A DNA stretch of 28,321 nucleotides from Oscillospiraceae bacterium (GTDB lineage: Bacteria > Bacillota > Clostridia > Oscillospirales > UBA929). Of the stretch, positions 1,426 to 28,321 are shown in pieces. Where the stretch lies: NCBI GenBank assembly GCA_031282535.1, contig JAITDM010000246.1, positions 1 to 28,321 on the forward strand. Direction: 5' to 3'. Within the stretch, counting starts at the first letter, position 1; every line of letters starts with the position of its first letter. The position numbers and the translations under genes are program-made. The notes below the pieces were generated by a model. It ran no database searches and was not told where the DNA came from. It saw only the letters and a program-made list of their open reading frames with translations.

Positions 1426-4400
1426 TCAATACGGATTGTTCGGACTATCTTTGTAAGACGTACCGAAAAGGTACGCCTTTTCAGCGTCCGTCAGCCACGA
1501 CATGCCATTCAGCGCGTCGATGACTTTGGCCTGCTTGCTGCCCGGAATGCTCTCACCGTCGGCGTTCTTGTCGGCCGTGGCCATGTCGTAGGCCAGGTCG
1601 TAGAGTATGTACTCCGCTGGAGAAATCCCCACCGGCCGCCCCGCCTCGATCTTTTCTACGAAAGCATACTGCCCCTTGAACTCATAGTCCGGGTTCGCCT
1701 TGTCCATCGCCTTGGCGTAGGCGTAATCCGACGCCATCTCCAGCGCCTTGTCCTTCTGCTGCGCCGGCAGCTTTTTGAACGCGGCGCGCCCCTGCAGGTC
1801 CTTCGTCACACCGCTCTCGGCCTTGTCCGACGCCGCGCCGAAGTCGCCCGACTTCTTGATGCGCGCCCGGAGTCCGGACTCGATCTTGCTGTCTTCGAGG
1901 CCGTCCCGGATGAGGTTCCGGCGGATCTGCTCATACTGCCACTTGTCGGTCTGCCAAGCGGCGTACAGGGTGTCGTAGTACCGCCCCGGTGCGGCCGTGG
2001 GCGGGTAGAGCAGTTTCTCATACTCGTACATACCCACCCAGTTGTCGGAGGCCGCCAGGCCGGTGCTCACGCCACTCATGACGTCGCGCTTGATGTTTGC
2101 CACCGGCAGGCCCAGTACCCCGGACGCCTGCGCCAGGAAGTCCGCCAGCCACGCGCCGAAGGTCATTTTGCCGCTGCCGCCAATCACGCCGATGCCGCGG
2201 CTGCCGGTCTGCACAAGCCTCGCAATGGCCGACATGTCCATGCGCTCGATGTCGTACCCCTGGAAGATCGAAAAGAGATCGTTGAAATACGGCAGCTTCG
2301 CCACCACATTGAGCTCCGAGCCGAGGTTGCCGAACAGCGCGGCGCCCAGATAGTCCATCGCGCCCTGCTCGTCCCCGGAGAAGCCCGTGAACGAGGCCAG
2401 CCACTTCTCCCAGTACGCGCGCTTCTTATCGTCGTCCCGCGCCGCGTCCGACAGCGCGCGCGCCGCCGCGTTGGCGACGCCCGCCAGCACAAGCCCCACA
2501 ATCGTCCGCGCCATCTGCCGCTTCGCCCCCGGCGCGCCTATGACAAGATCGTCGTGCGCGCGCGCCAGCATGCTGTAGGCTGTGATCGGCTCGGACATGA
2601 AGCTCGTCGCCATGCGCACTAGGCTGTTTGTGCTCCGACGCATCTGGTCGCGCTGGAGCAGAGAGTCGACCACCTGCGTGCGGTCAATGATCTCGTTGAA
2701 CCGCTCCGCCACGGCTTCATAAAAGGCTTCGCTGCGCCGCGTGAGGTCGCGCCGCTTGTGCCGGATCTCAGCCTCCGCGGCCCGCCACAGCGCGCTCCAC
2801 GTGATGCTATCGGCTTTCGCCGCCGGCGCCATCGCCGCCTCTTTCAGCTTGTCGAGATTGCTGTCGGTGCTCAGCAGCACGTCCCGGACGCTGCGCCCGG
2901 CGTCTCTGTCGAAGTAGCCCCAGTCCTTCCAGGTGGCAATCGGCGCATATTTCTTGATCAGATCCCACGTCCCCTTGCGGCGCCCAGGCCGCAGCGCGGC
3001 CAGCAAATACCGGTTGTCAATCACCGCGCCGGCCCGGAAGAACGCCGTGGGCTGTTGCAGGATCACGCGAACGTTCGCCCCCACGGCCGCCGCCTTGTAG
3101 TTGGACGTGAGCTTGCCGAGGCTCGTGGCGTCGCGCTCGCCGCCAGTCCCCTGATCGATGTCTTTGATCAGCAGGTCGAGATATGCCTTCCCGCGGTCGC
3201 CGAACACGCGCCCCAAGTCCTCCCGGACGCTCCCGACCACTTGGCCCTCCTCGTCCCTATACAGATAGTTATAAACGCGTTGCGTGTCTTCAATCGTGGT
3301 CAACCACGCCGAATACCACGCCATTTGCGCGGTGTGCTGCGCAAAAACCGAAAAAGCGTCTTCGAGGACAATGGCGTTCTTCGCCTTCGGAACCGTCTCT
3401 TTCGTAAAGCCCATGTTCTTCGTCGCGACCGCCTGCAACTTTCCAGTTTCGCCCGGCACGCCGCCGCGCCGGCGGTTCGGGTCGGTGTTAATGGGCCAGT
3501 AGTTCTCCTCCGTGAACTTCTCGTAACCGTAGGCGTCCATGGATGCCTTGTTGCCCCACGACGCCAGCGTGGTGGAGGCGTATTTGCCCATGTGGTCCGC
3601 CAGAATCTTTTGTTCGGCGGTCAAGCTGTTCACGATCCGCGTCACGTCTTCTTCCGTCACGTGGACGGGTTCGGTAGCGCGGGTCACGTTGCCGTCCTTG
3701 CCGAGAATCGGCGCGGGCCGAATGCCGTCGCCCAGAACATGGCCTTGGGCCTGCGGGCGCTTCATGAGCAGGTACAGATCCATGATCTGCCCCGTCGTCA
3801 GCTGGAGCGTCTTGCCGCCGACTTCGAATGTCTTCGGCGCCGCCTCCATGATCTTCCTGACATTCACGCCCTTGAATGCCTCCGCGTTCGCCTGCTGGGC
3901 CTCGCTGAGCAGGCGGATATTCTGGTCTTCCGCGCGGCGCATGGCCAGGAACATCGCGTCCCCGCCATCGCCAAGCCGGTGCATGAAGTCCACCGGCCTA
4001 AGTGACTGGAACATGAGGTCCTGCGTCAGCTTCACAGGGTACTTCCAGCCCCCATGCTCCTGCTTCGTCTTCCGCGCTTCCAGCGCGCCGCGGATCTCGT
4101 TCGCGGCCTCCGCCACGCTCTCGTAGCGCGACATCGCCAGCAGCTTGTTCGCATTTGAGACAGACGCCTCAATCGCCTTCAACGCCTGCCAGACCGTCGT
4201 CAGCTGCTGAGAGTTCATTTCCGCAATCCGGACGTCGCCCATGGCAATCACGGCCTCGATGTTTTCCATCAGGTCGGGGTCGATCACGAGCGTGTCCGGC
4301 GCCTCGGACGCGATCTTGCGGTACTGTTGTCGCACGGCGTTGAATGCCTCCGTGCGCTGGGTGTTGAGTGGCCGCAGCTTGGTCTTCCTGCCGAGCTGTT

Positions 4401-7400
4401 TCGCGCCCACAGACTTGGGGAGATTTGTCCGTCTGGGGGCCGCGCTTTCGAGGTTTATGGCGCCCATCAGTGTGGCCACCGCCGTCCGAAGCTCCTGCGG
4501 GATGTGCTTCTTGTCCGAGGGCTTTAGCAGTTTCTGCGACAGTGCCGAGGCGTGCCGCATGATCTGCCCGCGCAGACGCTGCGCCGTTCGCGCTTCTCGG
4601 TCGGCGGCCTTCTCTGCCGTATACTTCTTCTTGAGCCGGTCCACGGCGTCAATGCGCCGCTGCCGCTCCTGTTTCATGGCGCTCTGGAACTTCTCCTTCG
4701 CCGCCTGCCGGATCTCCTTGATCCGGGCATTTTTCTCGGCACGCACCCGCGCCGTGCGCGCGTTGGCCGCATCGGTCTTCTGCCGCTCTCTTTGCACCGC
4801 GCTGGCCCGCGACTGCTCGGCTTTGTCCAGCGCCGTGGCGGCGCGGTCACGCTCTTTCAGCACGGCGCTGGCCCGCGACTGCTCCGCCCGGTCCAGCGCC
4901 GCAGCCGCGCGGTCACGCTCCCTCAACACCGCAGAAGCCCGCGACTGCTCCGCCTTGTCCATGGCCGTGGCGGGCAGCTGACGCACCTCGTCGCCGATCA
5001 GCCGGTCAATGATCTCGTTGCTGACGAACCCCACCGTCTCGCGCATCGCGCCGCGGTACGGATTTTCCCGCACGGGCCGCAGCGTCCCGGCCAGCTCGGC
5101 CAGATATTGCAACTGGTCCGACTCTGCCGTGATGCTGCTGGGGAAGTACGCCTCCCCAAACATGCCGCGCAGGTCTTCAAAGGCCGAATCAATGCTCTGG
5201 CCGTCGCGCGCCAGCACGAACCGGCCGAAGTTGGCCTTGCGGAAATCTTTATAGTCCGGAATGTCGGCCTGCAACTCCGTCGGGACTTTGATCCGGAGTT
5301 TCCGGATCCATTTCCGCATCTCGTCACGGAATTCCTGCCCAGACGGGTCTTGCAGCGCTGACGCGTTTTCCACGATGGTCGACGCGATGGCGTCCGCGCG
5401 CTCGCGGATCTCGGTCCAACTGCCGTCGTTCGCGATGAGCTCGCCCAACGTCTTCAAGTCCGCCGACAGCTCGTCCGTGGCGGCGGTGCTCTCGTACTCT
5501 TTCCGCAACGAATTTGCCAGCTTCCTCACGTCCGCCGGCCGGAGCTCCGCGCGCTCGGTGAGCTTCGACTCGCGCTTCCAGTATTCAACCTTCTCCGCCA
5601 GCAACTCGTTCTCCTCGCGCAGCGCCCACACTTCGGGCCGCTCTTCACGGGAGAACTGCGCTCCCTCCACGGAGTTTATGGCGTCCAGTCGATCCGCCTC
5701 AAAGTTATGCGCGTACATGATCAAGGGAATGCCAGCAGCCTCAAGGTCCGCTTCCAACTTGCGGTCGATGTTGTCGGGGATAACCGCCGCAAGCACCTCT
5801 GAGAACGGAACGGCCCGCGCCGGTTTCGCCTCGAAGTAGTCCCGCGGAGTCTCCGCGATTTCGCGCGCCAGTGTGGCGATTTCCTCCGCGGTCTCCGTCG
5901 TCACGGTGAACATGTCGGGCCACTTCTTCAAATACCTGTAGATACCGGCCACACTCTTCGACTTTTGGACAGCCTCCGCCATGGCCTCGGCGGCATCGGA
6001 TATCGTTCTAAAATCATTCGGATCCGGACGGTTGGAGACGAGCTTGCGCGCAAGTTCATCGATCCGGTTGCCGAATTCATCCCTGATATTCGACATACCA
6101 TACTCGGAGAGCCTCTGCAGGCGCGCCCTGTCAGCGCGGGCGTCCTCAATGCTTTTGTATGTCTTGGCCGCCGCTCCAGCGAACGAAGCTACATCGCCCC
6201 ATCCGCCCGTTCCGGCCGGCCTCTCGCGGGCCATCATGGCCACGGCGTTGTCTATCGTATAGTCGTTGTAAAGCTGCTCGAAGGATCGCCGGCGCCCGGA
6301 CGGCGTGTAAGGATCATTCTTGTTCCGAAGGCCGCGCTTTAACACAAGGCCGTCGGCTTTTTCCGCCAACCACGCCTCGTATGCTTCCTGTTCGATCTTT
6401 GATTTTATGTCGGCCTGCGTGGCATAGTGGTCATATTTCCCATCTTCGCGCAAAACCGGATCAAAGTCAGGGATCGTGTCCGCAGCGTACAAAAGGCGCA
6501 TGTCGTTGTGGTCGCGGTACGCCTTGATAAAATCGCCGCCATGCCACTCCAGTCTGTCGGTAATGTTGGTGTCGTAGAGAAAAGTCCAGGTTTCGCTGGG
6601 AAGACCGTGTTCCTTCGCGACGTCTCGCCCCCAGCGGTAGAGCGCTTGCGTTTTCTTTTCGTCCAGTTTGTATCCGACCTCGGGAAATATGGGCGTGTAT
6701 GCGTCGCCCCCATAGAGCCTGTTGCGCTTGTCCGCAGAAGGGTCAACAGTGTTGCGCCCGAAGATCAACGAGATCGGCCCGAAGTTCGGCTGGCCCAGCT
6801 CGGCCCGCGTCACAGCGATGGAGGGCATGGCGAGGCCGCCCAGTTCCAGGGCGTCCCTCAGATTCGTGGGGGTCAGGTTGTGCACGGCGATGAGGTCCCG
6901 CGTCGACTCCACAGGCTCTTCAAGGGAAAATTGCTCTTTTTCTGTAAAGTCCTTGACAGATGATTCTTCTTGTGGTACTCTGGACTTAGAACGAACATCG
7001 GCGGCTTTGCCGCTAACCCCCGACTGTATTTCGGGGGGGTGTTCGTTCGTTTTTTGTTTTTCTGCAGAAAAGCTGTACACAAAGTGTCCGTCCGTACGTT
7101 CTTTCACGTTGACCGTCACGCGGTATGGGGTTGTGTTATCTCCCTCATATTCCCGAAACAGGATGTCGTTGATGAAATAGTGCCACTGCCGAACGCCCCT
7201 GTGTGTCGCTGAGGTCTTCCCCTCTTCCCCCTTTGAGTAATTGTAAACAGACTCGCTCGCGATCTGATAATAATCATCTGCCAGATCAAGCGTTACGCGC
7301 TGATCAGAGTAAGACCCGTGCCGGTTTCCAATCATCAATTTTGTCGCGTCGCTCGCAACCTTTGGATCATAGGCAGGATCGAACTGCGCGTAGATCACGC

Positions 7401-10400
7401 GGTCCGCTCCGTTTTCGTGGAGCACAAGGCGGATCGGCTTTTGGGACCAAACATCTTGGATGTATTGCAGGATTTTCTCGGATTTTGCCAATTTTGGAGT
7501 GCCTTTGGGGAAGTTGCTTCGGTATATGCCGCGCCCAGTCTCTGGATCGCGCCCCTCATAGGAGAACTGCTCCGCCGCGCCCCTCTCCACCTGCGCCGCG
7601 CGCTCGCGCGCGACCTCCGAAAACTGCAACGTGGGGATATTCACCTCGATCCCGGCGTACGCGTCCGCCAGAATCTCTTCCAGAATTTCATCGTCGGACT
7701 TGTTGAAAAGCCCATATTCGTCCATATACACGCCAATAAGCGCGTTCAAATCCTCGTTTGAGAACTTGGTGAGAAGCATCTTCCGAGTCTCTTGAACGAG
7801 GTTTTTGTCTGTCCGGGCCAAAAGATGGTACTCTTCATGGGCCGCTATCTGTTCCACCGTCAGGAACGGATGGTCGGCCTTGATCCACATGCGCTTGCCG
7901 TCGGCAGACACCGCGCCGCGCGCCGTGCCCACCACGCCGTTCTCGCGAATCTCCATGTCGCCGGTGAAGTAAATCACCTGCACGCCCAGCTTCGCCATCT
8001 TGCGGCTCACTGCGCGCTCGGTATCGCTCCAGAGCTTCGCTGGCGTGATGTACATGCCCTTGCGCGTCGTGCCTGCGCTTATGCCCTGCGCGGCGGTGCT
8101 CTCGGCTACAACGCCAGCAGCTTTGACCGCACGGCGGAGATCCTCCGCTCGCGCTCTTTGGGCTCCATTCTCAGGCCCTGTTCTTTGGCCTGTTGATACT
8201 TCGGAAGCTGGTCCACCGGCAGCCACACCAGATTTCCGTGCTTGCCGTCCAGCGCCACCCGCATTTGCTTCTTCGCCGCCATTTGTCTCGCTCCCTTCAA
8301 TGCTGTTTGCATCGTCCCATCCGGCCTCGTAGGCCGACAGGGCTTGTTCCTCCGTGATCATGTCGTCCGTGCCCGGCGCGTACGTGGCGCGCGCCAAGCC
8401 GGCCTCGTAGTACCGCGTCATCTCATCTATGTACGTGCCGGCATCCTGCGCCGGATCATACTGCTCGTACAGCGCCACAGCGCCGCGCGAGTCCTCGCCC
8501 AGCGCCCGCGCCGCCTCGAACACCGCCGCTTTGCCCGTGGGCGCCGGCACGCTCTCGTCACGCTCCGTCACGCGGACGTCACGCGTGACATCCGCATCAG
8601 CCGCGCCAGCTTCCCGCGCCGCCTCGATCTGTGGCGGCGTCAGCACCGAATCCGCCGGCGCCTCGCGGCCATTGCGCGCCGCCTCGTACTGCTGCACAAA
8701 CGCCGGATAATAGTCCGCCGCCGCCACGTCCGGATTATACATCCGCTGCAGCGTGCGGCCGCCCACCGGCCCCAGCGTGTCGGCCATGTCCGCCATCGCC
8801 TGCGTGTCGCTGGCCGCCAGATCCGGCGTGCGCAGGTCTGCAACCGACAAGGAATCCTTGACGGTTGGGACGGCGCGCGCCATCCCCGCCTCCCCTACGA
8901 GGGGAGGTGACGCCGCAGCGGCGGAGGGGTTCGCCAACCCCTGCACCGACGCGCGCACCTGTGAAATCGGCGCGTCAGTGTTGATCTCCTGCCCGGTGTA
9001 CCGCGACAGAACCGCCAGCGCCTCTGGGGACCGCGCCAGCTCCGCCGCCTTGTTGCCGGACGGCGTTTCCCCGCGCAGGATTGTGGCGATGGTCTGCGCC
9101 TGCCTGCGCGCCTCGTAGACCGGCATCCCGGCCTCTGTAAGCTGCGCGACAATCGAAGACTGCTCAGGGGCCACCGGCGCCGGCTCAACCTGTGCCGGAC
9201 CAGCCTGCGCCTCCTGCTGAGGCGCCGCATACAGGAACGACAGGTCCCCGCCGGACTCTTTATACATCTGCGCCAGGCGCCCGATCTGGGCGTCCGTCGG
9301 CTCTGCATTTTGCAGGCTGTTTGCAAAATTGTACACAACGGTGCTCTGGTCAAAGCTCAACGCGCGACTCATGAGCGCCTCATATTTACCGGATTCCCGG
9401 ATCCCCACGCCGACCCTAGGCGCGCTCGCCTCTGTGTGAATCGCGCCGGGCAGCTCCAGCATTCCGGCCGTGACCGCGCCCAGAATGCCAGCGTAGAGTG
9501 CCTCGTCGGTGAAGATCTTGAATTCGTTGTTCTCGCCGAGCACGAGATTGCGCCACACAGGATCAAGAATTTCCTGCATGTACTCTTCCGAGAACTCCCC
9601 GGCGCCTTTCACGCCCAGCGTGAGCGCCGTGCGAAGAATCGCGTTGTCAATCTTGGCGATCGTGTTCTTCGCAATATTGCCCGTGAGCATTCCGCCCACC
9701 TTGCCGATGCCGCCGAGCAGGTAGGACAATCCGGCCTCCGACGCGCCCACCAGTACGCCGTACATCCGAGCCTGCTCCGGACTATATCCCTCCCGCAGCT
9801 GCTCGCCATACGCGCCGCCGTACGCCTGCACGCCCATCAAGCCCGCGCCGACGCCGGGCCCATACAGCGCGCCCGCCGCGATGGAAGGGGCCATGTTCGC
9901 CACGGTGCTCGTGATGTCGAAGACCGTGCCCATGGCGCCGTCGATGTTTTCCCGCGTGGCGGACTGCATGGCTGCGGCGCGGCTCAAGGGAAGCTGCTCG
10001 CCGGTGAGTGCCTGACGAAGGTTCGCTCCGGCGGTCCCGAGGCCGCCCTCCACGGCCACAGAAAGTTGCTTGAGCGCGCTGTCGCCCGCCCATTCGGCCT
10101 TTTTTTCGCCGCTGCGCATCGCAAATTGATCCCGCAGAATGTCGAGATACTTCTCGGCCTCTTCCTGGCCCTTTGTCTGGTACACGTAGTTGTACATCTG
10201 CCGCTCTTCCGGCGTGATGTAGTCCTGCGCTAAGGTCTTCCGTTCGAGTCCGCCCTGGATGTCGCTGGTGTAGTCCCAGACATTCGGCCGAGGTAACTCC
10301 GCCTCCGGCGCGTCGGCGAAACCCGGCGCGCTCCTGTAGGGTTCATACCGCAACGGCGCCTGCACGGCCTCCGCCTTCCTAATCTGGGACTGCTGCTCCC

Positions 10401-10983
10401 AAACGGCATCCTGCGCCGCCTTGACGCGCTGGGACGCACTCTGCGCCTGCGCGCCCGACGAGGGCATCCCGGTCAGGCCCGAGATGGTGGGCGTGGCGTT
10501 TTTCCGCGCCGCGTCAAGCGTGGCCTGCCGGTCCGCCTCCACGCGCCGCCCCGCCGGTATGTCGTAGTCGCGCAGGCGAAGATACTCCTGCGCCTCCGGC
10601 TTTGCCAACTGGTTTTGCGCGGCCCGCTGGTTGCGCTGCTGCTGCCGCAGGCCGCCCAGCGCCTGCGAATTTTTGAAAATGGTGTCTATGATCTTATCCG
10701 TAGTGCCCGCACCGTACACTTTGTCGGTGCGGGCTTTTGTCGCCATGAAGTGATCCCTGAGCCGCGACCCGGCGTCGAGATACTGGCTGATCTGCGACTC
10801 AGATGCCGGCTGTTTCGCCAGCTTTTGCCCCTGCTCCAACCATGCGTTGAACTCGTCGTCGCGGGACGCCTCATCGCCGTACTTTTCGGGGTTCATCCGC
10901 GCGCGGTAGAGCGCCATGGCGGATGTGGTTTTCTTTTCGTCTTTTTCTTTGGTCCTTGTGCGATATAGGCCCATTGCGCTCAT
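1426..10983 (-). CDS. Giant internal virion / DNA-ejection polyvalent protein (3185 aa)
   Basis: 9.5-kb open frame with RBS AAGGAGG. It has a Gly/Ala hydrophobic segment, a HExxH motif (HEEYH, 7825-7839), two lower-GC inserted domains, a coiled-coil repeat and a long helical C-terminus, and lies between the tail genes and the lysis module. Confidence 0.9.
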   Translation of the reverse strand: MSAMGLYRTRTKEKDEKKTTSAMALYRARMNPEKYGDEASRDDEFNAWLEQGQKLAKQPASESQISQYLDAGSRLRDHFMATKARTDKVYGAGTTDKIIDTIFKNSQALGGLRQQQRNQRAAQNQLAKPEAQEYLRLRDYDIPAGRRVEADRQATLDAARKNATPTISGLTGMPSSGAQAQSASQRVKAAQDAVWEQQSQIRKAEAVQAPLRYEPYRSAPGFADAPEAELPRPNVWDYTSDIQGGLERKTLAQDYITPEERQMYNYVYQTKGQEEAEKYLDILRDQFAMRSGEKKAEWAGDSALKQLSVAVEGGLGTAGANLRQALTGEQLPLSRAAAMQSATRENIDGAMGTVFDITSTVANMAPSIAAGALYGPGVGAGLMGVQAYGGAYGEQLREGYSPEQARMYGVLVGASEAGLSYLLGGIGKVGGMLTGNIAKNTIAKIDNAILRTALTLGVKGAGEFSEEYMQEILDPVWRNLVLGENNEFKIFTDEALYAGILGAVTAGMLELPGAIHTEASAPRVGVGIRESGKYEALMSRALSFDQSTVVYNFANSLQNAEPTDAQIGRLAQMYKESGGDLSFLYAAPQQEAQAGPAQVEPAPVAPEQSSIVAQLTEAGMPVYEARRQAQTIATILRGETPSGNKAAELARSPEALAVLSRYTGQEINTDAPISQVRASVQGLANPSAAAASPPLVGEAGMARAVPTVKDSLSVADLRTPDLAASDTQAMADMADTLGPVGGRTLQRMYNPDVAAADYYPAFVQQYEAARNGREAPADSVLTPPQIEAAREAGAADADVTRDVRVTERDESVPAPTGKAAVFEAARALGEDSRGAVALYEQYDPAQDAGTYIDEMTRYYEAGLARATYAPGTDDMITEEQALSAYEAGWDDANSIEGSETNGGEEANAGGAGRQARKSGVAAGGPASEVSTGQRTGPENGAQRARAEDLRRAVKAAGVVAESTAAQGISAGTTRKGMYITPAKLWSDTERAVSRKMAKLGVQVIYFTGDMEIRENGVVGTARGAVSADGKRMWIKADHPFLTVEQIAAHEEYHLLARTDKNLVQETRKMLLTKFSNEDLNALIGVYMDEYGLFNKSDDEILEEILADAYAGIEVNIPTLQFSEVARERAAQVERGAAEQFSYEGRDPETGRGIYRSNFPKGTPKLAKSEKILQYIQDVWSQKPIRLVLHENGADRVIYAQFDPAYDPKVASDATKLMIGNRHGSYSDQRVTLDLADDYYQIASESVYNYSKGEEGKTSATHRGVRQWHYFINDILFREYEGDNTTPYRVTVNVKERTDGHFVYSFSAEKQKTNEHPPEIQSGVSGKAADVRSKSRVPQEESSVKDFTEKEQFSLEEPVESTRDLIAVHNLTPTNLRDALELGGLAMPSIAVTRAELGQPNFGPISLIFGRNTVDPSADKRNRLYGGDAYTPIFPEVGYKLDEKKTQALYRWGRDVAKEHGLPSETWTFLYDTNITDRLEWHGGDFIKAYRDHNDMRLLYAADTIPDFDPVLREDGKYDHYATQADIKSKIEQEAYEAWLAEKADGLVLKRGLRNKNDPYTPSGRRRSFEQLYNDYTIDNAVAMMARERPAGTGGWGDVASFAGAAAKTYKSIEDARADRARLQRLSEYGMSNIRDEFGNRIDELARKLVSNRPDPNDFRTISDAAEAMAEAVQKSKSVAGIYRYLKKWPDMFTVTTETAEEIATLAREIAETPRDYFEAKPARAVPFSEVLAAVIPDNIDRKLEADLEAAGIPLIMYAHNFEADRLDAINSVEGAQFSREERPEVWALREENELLAEKVEYWKRESKLTERAELRPADVRKLANSLRKEYESTAATDELSADLKTLGELIANDGSWTEIRERADAIASTIVENASALQDPSGQEFRDEMRKWIRKLRIKVPTELQADIPDYKDFRKANFGRFVLARDGQSIDSAFEDLRGMFGEAYFPSSITAESDQLQYLAELAGTLRPVRENPYRGAMRETVGFVSNEIIDRLIGDEVRQLPATAMDKAEQSRASAVLRERDRAAAALDRAEQSRASAVLKERDRAATALDKAEQSRASAVQRERQKTDAANARTARVRAEKNARIKEIRQAAKEKFQSAMKQERQRRIDAVDRLKKKYTAEKAADREARTAQRLRGQIMRHASALSQKLLKPSDKKHIPQELRTAVATLMGAINLESAAPRRTNLPKSVGAKQLGRKTKLRPLNTQRTEAFNAVRQQYRKIASEAPDTLVIDPDLMENIEAVIAMGDVRIAEMNSQQLTTVWQALKAIEASVSNANKLLAMSRYESVAEAANEIRGALEARKTKQEHGGWKYPVKLTQDLMFQSLRPVDFMHRLGDGGDAMFLAMRRAEDQNIRLLSEAQQANAEAFKGVNVRKIMEAAPKTFEVGGKTLQLTTGQIMDLYLLMKRPQAQGHVLGDGIRPAPILGKDGNVTRATEPVHVTEEDVTRIVNSLTAEQKILADHMGKYASTTLASWGNKASMDAYGYEKFTEENYWPINTDPNRRRGGVPGETGKLQAVATKNMGFTKETVPKAKNAIVLEDAFSVFAQHTAQMAWYSAWLTTIEDTQRVYNYLYRDEEGQVVGSVREDLGRVFGDRGKAYLDLLIKDIDQGTGGERDATSLGKLTSNYKAAAVGANVRVILQQPTAFFRAGAVIDNRYLLAALRPGRRKGTWDLIKKYAPIATWKDWGYFDRDAGRSVRDVLLSTDSNLDKLKEAAMAPAAKADSITWSALWRAAEAEIRHKRRDLTRRSEAFYEAVAERFNEIIDRTQVVDSLLQRDQMRRSTNSLVRMATSFMSEPITAYSMLARAHDDLVIGAPGAKRQMARTIVGLVLAGVANAAARALSDAARDDDKKRAYWEKWLASFTGFSGDEQGAMDYLGAALFGNLGSELNVVAKLPYFNDLFSIFQGYDIERMDMSAIARLVQTGSRGIGVIGGSGKMTFGAWLADFLAQASGVLGLPVANIKRDVMSGVSTGLAASDNWVGMYEYEKLLYPPTAAPGRYYDTLYAAWQTDKWQYEQIRRNLIRDGLEDSKIESGLRARIKKSGDFGAASDKAESGVTKDLQGRAAFKKLPAQQKDKALEMASDYAYAKAMDKANPDYEFKGQYAFVEKIEAGRPVGISPAEYILYDLAYDMATADKNADGESIPGSKQAKVIDALNGMSWLTDAEKAYLFGTSYKDSPNNPY
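4780..4966 (-). repeat. Three 66-bp (22-aa) tandem repeats, D(K/R)AEQSRASAV(L/Q)(R/K)ER...
   Basis: The core GCCCGCGACTGCTC recurs at 4805, 4871 and 4937. Confidence 0.9.
6953..6981 (+). promoter_or_regulatory. Sigma-A-type promoter, antisense and internal to the giant gene
   Basis: TTGACA (6953-6958), 17-bp spacer, TGn extended -10, TACTCT (6976-6981). Confidence 0.75.
6988..7055 (+). ncRNA. Candidate ~68-nt three-way-junction small RNA with intrinsic terminator and tRNA-Tyr-like anticodon arm
   Basis: P1 pairs 6989-6997 with 7040-7048 (9 bp perfect, extendable by 2). P2 is GCGGC/GCCGC (7001-7013). P3 is CCCCCGA/TCGGGGG with the 7-nt loop CTGTATT (7017-7037). A T6 run follows (7050-7055), and the unit starts ~7 nt after the -10 box. 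Confidence 0.65.
8106..8282 (-). CDS. Nested 58-aa protein in the +1 frame of the giant gene (MAAKKQMRVALDGKHGNLVWLPVDQLPKYQQAKEQGLRMEPKERERRISAVRSKLLAL)
   Basis: SD AAGGGAG lies 8 nt before the ATG. By hand count GC3 is 47/58 in this frame versus 21/59 in the host frame. Confidence 0.7.
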   Translation of the reverse strand: MAAKKQMRVALDGKHGNLVWLPVDQLPKYQQAKEQGLRMEPKERERRISAVRSKLLAL

Positions 10984-28219: not shown

Positions 28220-28269
28220 AGAGCGCCGACTCGCCACCGACGAGCCCTCCTCCGCCTCCCAGAGGAATG

Positions 28270-28301
28270 AAAAAAAGAGACCGGATGTCCGGTCTCTTTT
28301 T
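28270..28301 (+). terminator. Intrinsic, probably bidirectional, terminator
   Basis: GAGACCGG/CCGGTCTC stem with a 4-nt loop, flanked by A7 and T5. Confidence 0.85.
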
Positions 28302-28321
28302 CATGTTCGGCACTTCTTCCA

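Follow-up and report, generated by a model that had tools for sequence, protein, structure and literature searches.

Among the closest described systems, the OOP RNA of phage lambda, 77 nt in length, is antisense to the 3' part of cII, and type I toxin-antitoxin pairs of Bacillus prophages, such as txpA/RatA and bsrG/SR4, possess a 3'-overlapping antitoxin RNA. In type III systems, the ToxI RNA forms a tandem repeat array positioned upstream of the toxin gene on the same strand and is processed by the toxin. The gene in which the present locus resides belongs to yet another described group, the polyvalent proteins of phages and conjugative elements (Iyer et al., 2017, PMC5512222). It encodes a typical representative of these proteins, i.e., giant, modular and composed of LPD and PBECR domains (PMC5512222). 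In the text of that study, LPD3 is a domain of no known function, and the words "antisense" and "small RNA" are absent (PMC5512222).

The window, i.e., the whole stretch of 28,321 nucleotides analyzed here, originates from a termite-gut metagenome. Its minus strand carries a gene for a giant polyvalent virion protein of 3185 aa (1426-10983), in which a predicted LPD3-like domain (aa 1140-1306; 7066-7566, minus strand; AF2 model with a pLDDT of 86) is followed by a linker (aa ~1308-1344) and by the PBECR5 predicted RNase domain (aa 1350-1532; 6388-6936, minus strand; Pfam PF18814, E 1.7e-44). Positions 6953-7055 of the plus strand, located in this linker directly behind the LPD3-like domain and thus opposite to the giant virion gene, very probably constitute a self-standing small-RNA gene, with a predicted sigma-A-type promoter, a three-way junction of ~68 nt and a U-tract. 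We likewise have little doubt that this RNA is a divergent member of an RNA family from gut (pro)phages of Clostridia. The element is present in a single copy in the MAG.

All parts of the unit are read on the plus strand. The -35 hexamer TTGACA (6953-6958) is followed, with a 17-nt spacer, by an extended -10 element, TG-n-TACTCT (6973-6981, with TG at 6973-6974 and TACTCT at 6976-6981), and A6988, 7 nt downstream of TACTCT, is the putative +1. The predicted transcript of ~68 nt (6988-7055) is delimited by this start and the end of the U-run and is recognized by covariance model R1. According to RNAfold, the 11 bp of P1 are formed by its 5' strand (6989-6999) and 3' strand (7038-7048); they enclose a first hairpin of 6 bp (7000-7014; 7000-7005 with 7009-7014), whose sequence varies in the family alignment while its pairing is constant, and a second hairpin of 7 bp (7017-7037; 7017-7023 with 7031-7037) with the 7-nt loop CUGUAUU. 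These helices are the P1, P2 and P3 that an earlier note, made from the sequence alone, had proposed. The T6 run at 7050-7055, which on the opposite strand codes for the tail of a conserved AEKQ motif, is a likely intrinsic termination tract. The complete antisense unit claimed in the earlier note, namely TTGACA-17-TGnTACTCT, the three-way junction at 6989-7048 (plus strand) and T6, is borne out both by direct reading and by conservation in homologues.

The -10 sequence of the window is weak by consensus, TACTCT and TATAAT being identical at 3 of 6 positions only, which explains why a simple promoter scan of the window did not list the site; for both reasons, the window alone cannot show that the promoter is genuine. 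That the site is a probable promoter is supported by homologues, which conserve it. When 72 distinct regions upstream of the RNA are compared, the -35 element is most often TTGACA (28), TTGACT (20) or TTGCTT (12) and the -10 element TATACT (34), TATAAT (12) or, as in the window, TACTCT (4). The spacer measures 17 nt in 57 of the 72 regions, and 56 have the RNA at one fixed distance, an arrangement shared by the window (TTGACA-17-TGgTACTCT, 7 nt before A6988). A strict promoter test was passed by 48 of the 72 regions versus 60 of 3000 random sites (2%). Moreover, the promoter is kept in intergenic copies (L009, L072), in out-of-frame copies and in a CRISPR-adjacent host copy. At the other end of the unit, most family members possess a U-rich tract after P1, expected to overlap the last LPD3-like codons; in the window, this tract is the T6 run at 7050-7055 and the domain ends at 7066. 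The efficiency of termination is uncertain, since the base of P1 is A/U/G-rich and not G+C-rich. No RNA run was found to contain the window, and contigs of four RNA runs on a relative (L025) are of low depth, give no direction and do not delimit the sRNA.

The three-way junction predicted by RNAfold for 6988-7060 (plus strand) has a free energy of -38.1 kcal/mol (z = -6.1), a stability that none of 200 shuffled sequences reaches. Since the complementary strand is predicted to fold almost equally well (-31.8 kcal/mol, z = -6.3), folding alone does not decide the strand. Covariance model R1, built from 39 homologues (alignment A3) with the window sequence left out, matches 6987-7060 (plus strand) over the full model length with 34.9 bits (E 2.7e-7), and this is its sole full-length significant match in the 28-kb window. 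Since members of the main clade score 60-96 bits against R1, the window copy is a divergent one. In the larger alignment A5 (102 hits, 77 distinct copies), in which sequences are related and were fitted to the model, 97.6% of the cells of the distinct copies are paired versus 78.4% in shuffles, and both-sided changes are found in 18 of 23 pairs and in 12 of the 14 P1 pairs. Two further measures are independent of model fitting and of sequence kinship: slid controls, which reach 39-51% pairing, and the asymmetry of 349 G·U versus 9 A·C cells in the 77 distinct copies. Owing to this asymmetry, the RNA is assigned to the strand antisense to the giant gene, on which pairing amounts to 97.6%, compared with 78.2% on the mRNA strand. 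Each homologous copy folds individually to the same antisense-oriented three-way junction. The junction is invariant, two tandem U·G pairs close P1 and, outside the divergent members, the loop is conserved. The structure is under selection.

The same counts bear on the reading that there is no RNA product at all and that these nucleotides serve the sense mRNA, as a frameshift or pausing signal, or the DNA, as a recombination linker in domain shuffling. On the mRNA strand, an A6 run (CAA AAA ACG) does lie 1 nt before the structure, with a -1 frame that stops after 12 codons, and the module marks the borders of exchanged segments. However, the numbers of G·U and A·C cells are incompatible with selection on the mRNA strand, conservation does not extend to the A-run (which is missing, for example, from L041) and a conserved promoter at a fixed distance would be left unexplained, while a role as recombination anchor may be a by-product that is compatible with an RNA. 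We therefore consider this reading very improbable. A frameshift signal for the giant gene, in particular, was rejected because the A-run is not conserved and the selected structure is on the opposite strand.

Selection on the RNA also accounts for an apparent protein motif. The domain N-terminal to the linker recurs with ~65% identity in over 100 giant proteins from uncultivated phages of the gut, and nearly all of these proteins carry behind it the "conserved peptide" STRRTLHADV...NAQPS. This conserved linker peptide is a shadow of the RNA constraints. It is at the nucleotide level that the core CGGACTTTACATGCCG is invariant among homologues, and in some loci the RNA core is read in each of the frames or placed after a stop codon (L022, L052, L054). 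In the 36 distinct copies that are in frame, Thr is encoded by ACT without exception (36/36; background 19%), Leu by TTA in 34 (background 6%) and His by CAT in 35. The change CGG to CAG, which replaces Arg with Gln, goes together with a synonymous replacement of GCC by GCT (22 and 14 copies), and the pair that joins these codons (56-77, CGG/CAG with GCC/GCT) shows zero unpaired cells in 77 sequences. The linker peptide of the window, HPPEIQSGVSGKAADV, is unrelated to that of the main clade, from which it follows that the structure is conserved and the protein is not.

The RNA family is uncatalogued: it comprises more than 100 loci in gut phages and is absent from Rfam 15, in which neither the window region (E up to 10) nor five homologous loci (E up to 1) had a match. 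Our literature searches yielded no description of this RNA, and neither the window region nor a main-clade RNA matched the DNA of isolated phages in blastn. The family escapes gene callers and Rfam because it is encoded backwards inside a protein linker.

The constant neighbor of the RNA is the domain encoded at 7066-7566. Its assignment to an LPD3-like type is a prediction, to which several lines of evidence point. Pfam LPD3 (PF18798) yields no match for the window domain, whereas 15 of its 34 relatives have sub-threshold matches at E up to 1, the best being 0.0033; a Foldseek comparison with LPD3 proteins of BFVD gives a probability of 1.0 (TM ~0.5, E 2e-4), and neighbors of the domain in the Atlas carry LPD3. 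The association with the RNA is tight, as 36 of the 38 loci found via the peptides of the domain alone carry the RNA according to R1; one of the two remaining loci ends at the domain, and in the other (L048) folding reveals the three-way junction together with a promoter and a U-run. Even divergent domains, with 44-55% identity, keep a divergent promoter together with the three-way junction and the U-run, e.g., L050 (46% domain identity) and P0029/L130 (44%), in which the loops are different.

In the earlier note this neighbor was termed BECR/LPD3-like, and while the second half of the name agrees with the sub-threshold Pfam matches and with Foldseek, the first half is not supported. Foldseek against the PDB returned no fold match for the domain (best E 0.02, TM ~0.2), a PDB profile search gave 0 hits and hhalign against PBECR5 a probability of 0.7%, i.e., no profile similarity. 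A BECR-fold RNase at 7066-7566 is thus not supported, with no likeness in fold or profile to barnase, EndoU, colicin E5/D or RelE. The one clear predicted RNase nearby is PBECR5, on the promoter side of the RNA, and it follows the RNA in just 7 of 120 related proteins.

It was in the second hairpin that the earlier note had seen a tRNA-Tyr mimic. The segment GA-CUGUAUU-UC with its 7-nt loop is indeed read at 7022-7032 (plus strand), and it agrees at 9 of 11 positions with the bacterial tRNA-Tyr anticodon arm, so the likeness is genuine in the window. As a trait of the family it does not hold, given that the loop is lost in L051 (AUGCAAA), L046 (GAGCAAA), L048 (GAGCAUG), L050 (8 nt, AGCGACCC) and L130 (UGAUU). 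The main clade, whose second hairpin has the loop AUGUAAA and a bulged U, is nearer to the tRNA-Tyr loop in its 3' half than the window copy; the latter has no bulge, and only UGUA is common to both. Behind homologous domains, the promoter and the structure are conserved and the peptide is not, a comparison that the earlier note had called for; the constancy of the loop, about which it had also asked, is not observed. Its statement that the RNA is not a functional tRNA is correct: ARAGORN detects none in the window, and the RNA consists of just three helices, with no acceptor or T arm and no CCA. A tRNA or tRNA-like RNA was rejected on the same grounds, there being no Rfam match at E up to 10 either. 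The MAG, which is 68% complete, has 25 tRNAs, none of them for Tyr.

The full model of the earlier note was that the RNA is a tRNA-Tyr pseudo-substrate that neutralizes the phage's own adjacent BECR-type tRNase. The 9/11 likeness speaks for this model, as does the PBECR5 domain that adjoins the promoter. Yet, the domain named in it is LPD3-like and has no fold or profile link to BECR nucleases, PBECR5 comes after the RNA in only 7 of 120 relatives, and the loop differs between lineages. An antidote tied to an adjacent tRNase is further at odds with the RNA being present also in loci of 8-15 kb that have neither domain. We find the model scarcely credible.

Somewhat better placed, though still improbable in our view, is an anti-defence decoy, either one that mimics a tRNA anticodon arm or a sponge of another kind, which would be made early and absorb a host anticodon nuclease or an RNA-targeting defence. 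Its arguments are the 7-nt hairpin loop with U-G-U-A in both the window (CUGUAUU) and the main clade (AUGUAAA), a promoter of strong constitutive type and a precedent in phage tRNAs known to counter tRNA-cleaving defences (PMC11464382). On the other hand, divergent members have GCA-type, 8-nt or 5-nt loops, the acceptor arm, T arm and CCA are missing, and a chance likeness of some 7-nt loop to some anticodon loop is likely. Moreover, a decoy would not need the tight linkage to an LPD3-like domain.

The RNA-plus-promoter module is autonomous. A metagenome scan for the loop core retrieved 64 loci, ~24 of which are located behind a full or partial LPD3-like domain, while in ~23 the locus, of up to 15 kb, is devoid of this domain and 19 correspond to a captured piece of ~255 bp. 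Domain-free copies occur in linkers of other giant ORFs (L083, L077, L109), between tail genes (L009/L014) and in tandem (L072/L114). What unrelated contexts have in common is the RNA with or without its promoter alone, a unit of 77-258 bp. In three clear intergenic cases the RNA is still opposed to the flanking operon. The fact that some copies, namely intergenic ones and those adjoining a CRISPR array, overlap no mRNA speaks against an antisense reading.

The captured copies are found in 19 contigs, in which the RNA, its promoter and 23 domain codons are placed at the cas-distal (old) end of a type II-C array, in the gene order cas9-cas1-cas2, array, captured cassette, host genes. The captured piece begins after the first 8 nt of a repeat, and the adjoining repeats are degenerate. 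Two alleles of the variable hairpin are common to host and phage copies. Spacers of the arrays gave no real match to the fetched phage loci. A tracrRNA or CRISPR-repeat mimic was also considered and rejected, as the true anti-repeat precedes cas9 and the repeat is not complementary to the sRNA. It is conceivable, albeit rather unlikely, that the sRNA and the LPD3-like domain are an antidote pair within a virion effector gene, and that the RNA half, together with its promoter, is taken up by bacteria at the old end of type II-C arrays and kept as a heritable, non-CRISPR immunity against phages which inject or express the module.

As for its function, the best mechanism we can offer is that the RNA regulates the giant late mRNA in cis as an antisense RNA, or serves as its antidote, which we put forward tentatively as a plausible reading that falls somewhat short of probable. 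The anatomy is that of a cis-antisense RNA, with a promoter and predicted terminator of its own opposite an overlapped mRNA, and a search of the window for a trans target of the loop found the cis site alone. We infer that the constitutive-type promoter would produce the RNA when the late operon is off or barely starting. The giant mRNA, directly 3' of the part that codes for LPD3, is fully complementary to the RNA, a geometry like that of lambda OOP with cII or of the type I pairs with a 3' overlap. The RNA would pair with that mRNA, and the pairing may reduce the stability or translation of the mRNA. Copies that are free, whether in other phages or captured where a host CRISPR array ends, could do likewise in trans against incoming relatives.

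Still, the invariant junction, the tandem U·G pairs and the conserved loop exceed the needs of simple antisense pairing, which suggests a protein partner. Accordingly, the RNA might bind the LPD3-like domain as an inhibitor (antitoxin) or cofactor, both forming a two-part module in which orphan RNAs would be comparable to orphan immunity genes. Nearly each copy of the domain is followed by the RNA and the reverse is not so; the RNA and the domain diverge together across 44-100% identity, with lineage-specific loops; the junction and the U·G pairs resemble a recognition surface; and a captured copy with an intact promoter resides in a host beside cas9-cas1-cas2. Nevertheless, both toxicity and RNA binding of the LPD3 domain are putative, the phage loci of 8-15 kb have the RNA and not the domain, and the orientation and single copy of the RNA are unlike known type III RNA antitoxins. 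This makes protein binding the next candidate, though an unlikely one, and we retain the cis-antisense role as the preferred one.

The locus adds to phage biology a structured sRNA family with more than 100 loci in gut and rumen phages of Clostridia, offers a first functional handle on the LPD3-like module and connects phage sRNA genes with phage fragments captured at the ends of CRISPR arrays. If the RNA silences or neutralizes an injected effector, it would represent a new level at which conflicts of phages with their hosts and with one another are controlled.

Compared with the known systems, the likeness to type III toxin-antitoxin modules, to which the earlier note had appealed, is limited to a structured RNA proposed to neutralize a neighboring protein; unlike ToxI, the RNA described here is a single antisense copy, and no RNase fold was found for its neighbor. 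With type I pairs it shares the convergent orientation of an sRNA whose gene overlaps the sequence directly 3' of a module possibly in need of silencing, as well as the existence of orphan copies. In L022, the LPD3-like domain even ends the protein, with a stop codon just ahead of the RNA region. In contrast to type I toxins, though, the partner is a 167-aa domain of a 2000-3800-aa protein and not a small membrane peptide, and its toxicity is putative. Lambda OOP provides another parallel, as this short phage-encoded RNA likewise has a promoter and a terminator of its own and is transcribed opposite to a coding region to whose mRNA it is fully complementary. What distinguishes the present family from OOP is a covarying three-way junction with an invariant junction, its position in the linker of a late virion gene, its linkage to one domain and its nature as a movable module.

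The sRNA gene recurs in settings other than the linker behind an LPD3-like domain. At the homologous metagenomic locus L018 (805-891), it lies behind a different domain (...KKYLYDLIKIKEN...) and a longer linker, and therefore the sRNA module is not bound to one domain sequence. A further copy, at L009:1739-1825 and likewise at L014, is situated inside a 165-bp gap between tail-region genes, to which the L009 sRNA gene is opposed in orientation; the contig carrying this L009 copy has no LPD3-like domain. The gene also occurs as a tandem duplicate with a spacing of about 790 bp, at L072 (2932-3021 and 3723-3812) and at L114. Each of the L072 copies possesses a TTGAC(T/C)-17-TATACT promoter, a third promoter of similar type, devoid of an RNA, is located between them, and both lack the U-run 3' of the base helix P1.

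Within the window, a PBECR5 domain is clearly recognisable at 6388-6936 (-), with a Pfam E-value of 1.7e-44. An A6 run (CAA AAA ACG) is present at 7049-7062 on the minus strand, 1 nt ahead of the structure as read on the mRNA strand, and a -1 slip at this site would reach a stop after 12 codons. Programmed frameshifting here is unlikely, because relatives do not conserve the run. Elsewhere in the window, a perfect hairpin with T-runs on both strands (28266-28307) resembles a bidirectional terminator; the RNA covariance model matched it as a bare stem only (19 and 18 bits).

Among public runs, the window sequence is contained only in one, a termite-gut metagenome, and no close relative of its RNA variant was found. 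Main-clade relatives derive from Oscillospirales MAGs of human, ruminant and other animal gut.

A phage-derived fragment, some 255 bp long, occurs in 19 contigs at the end of a type II-C CRISPR array that is degenerate and distal to cas (L105:6980-7310; also L056, L066, L073-L076, L080-L082, L086, L098, L101, L106, L107, L112, L122, L125 and L128). Its start lies 8 nt into a repeat, and besides the sRNA gene and the promoter of that gene it includes 23 LPD3-like domain codons. At the variable hairpin, CRISPR-end and phage copies have two alleles in common.
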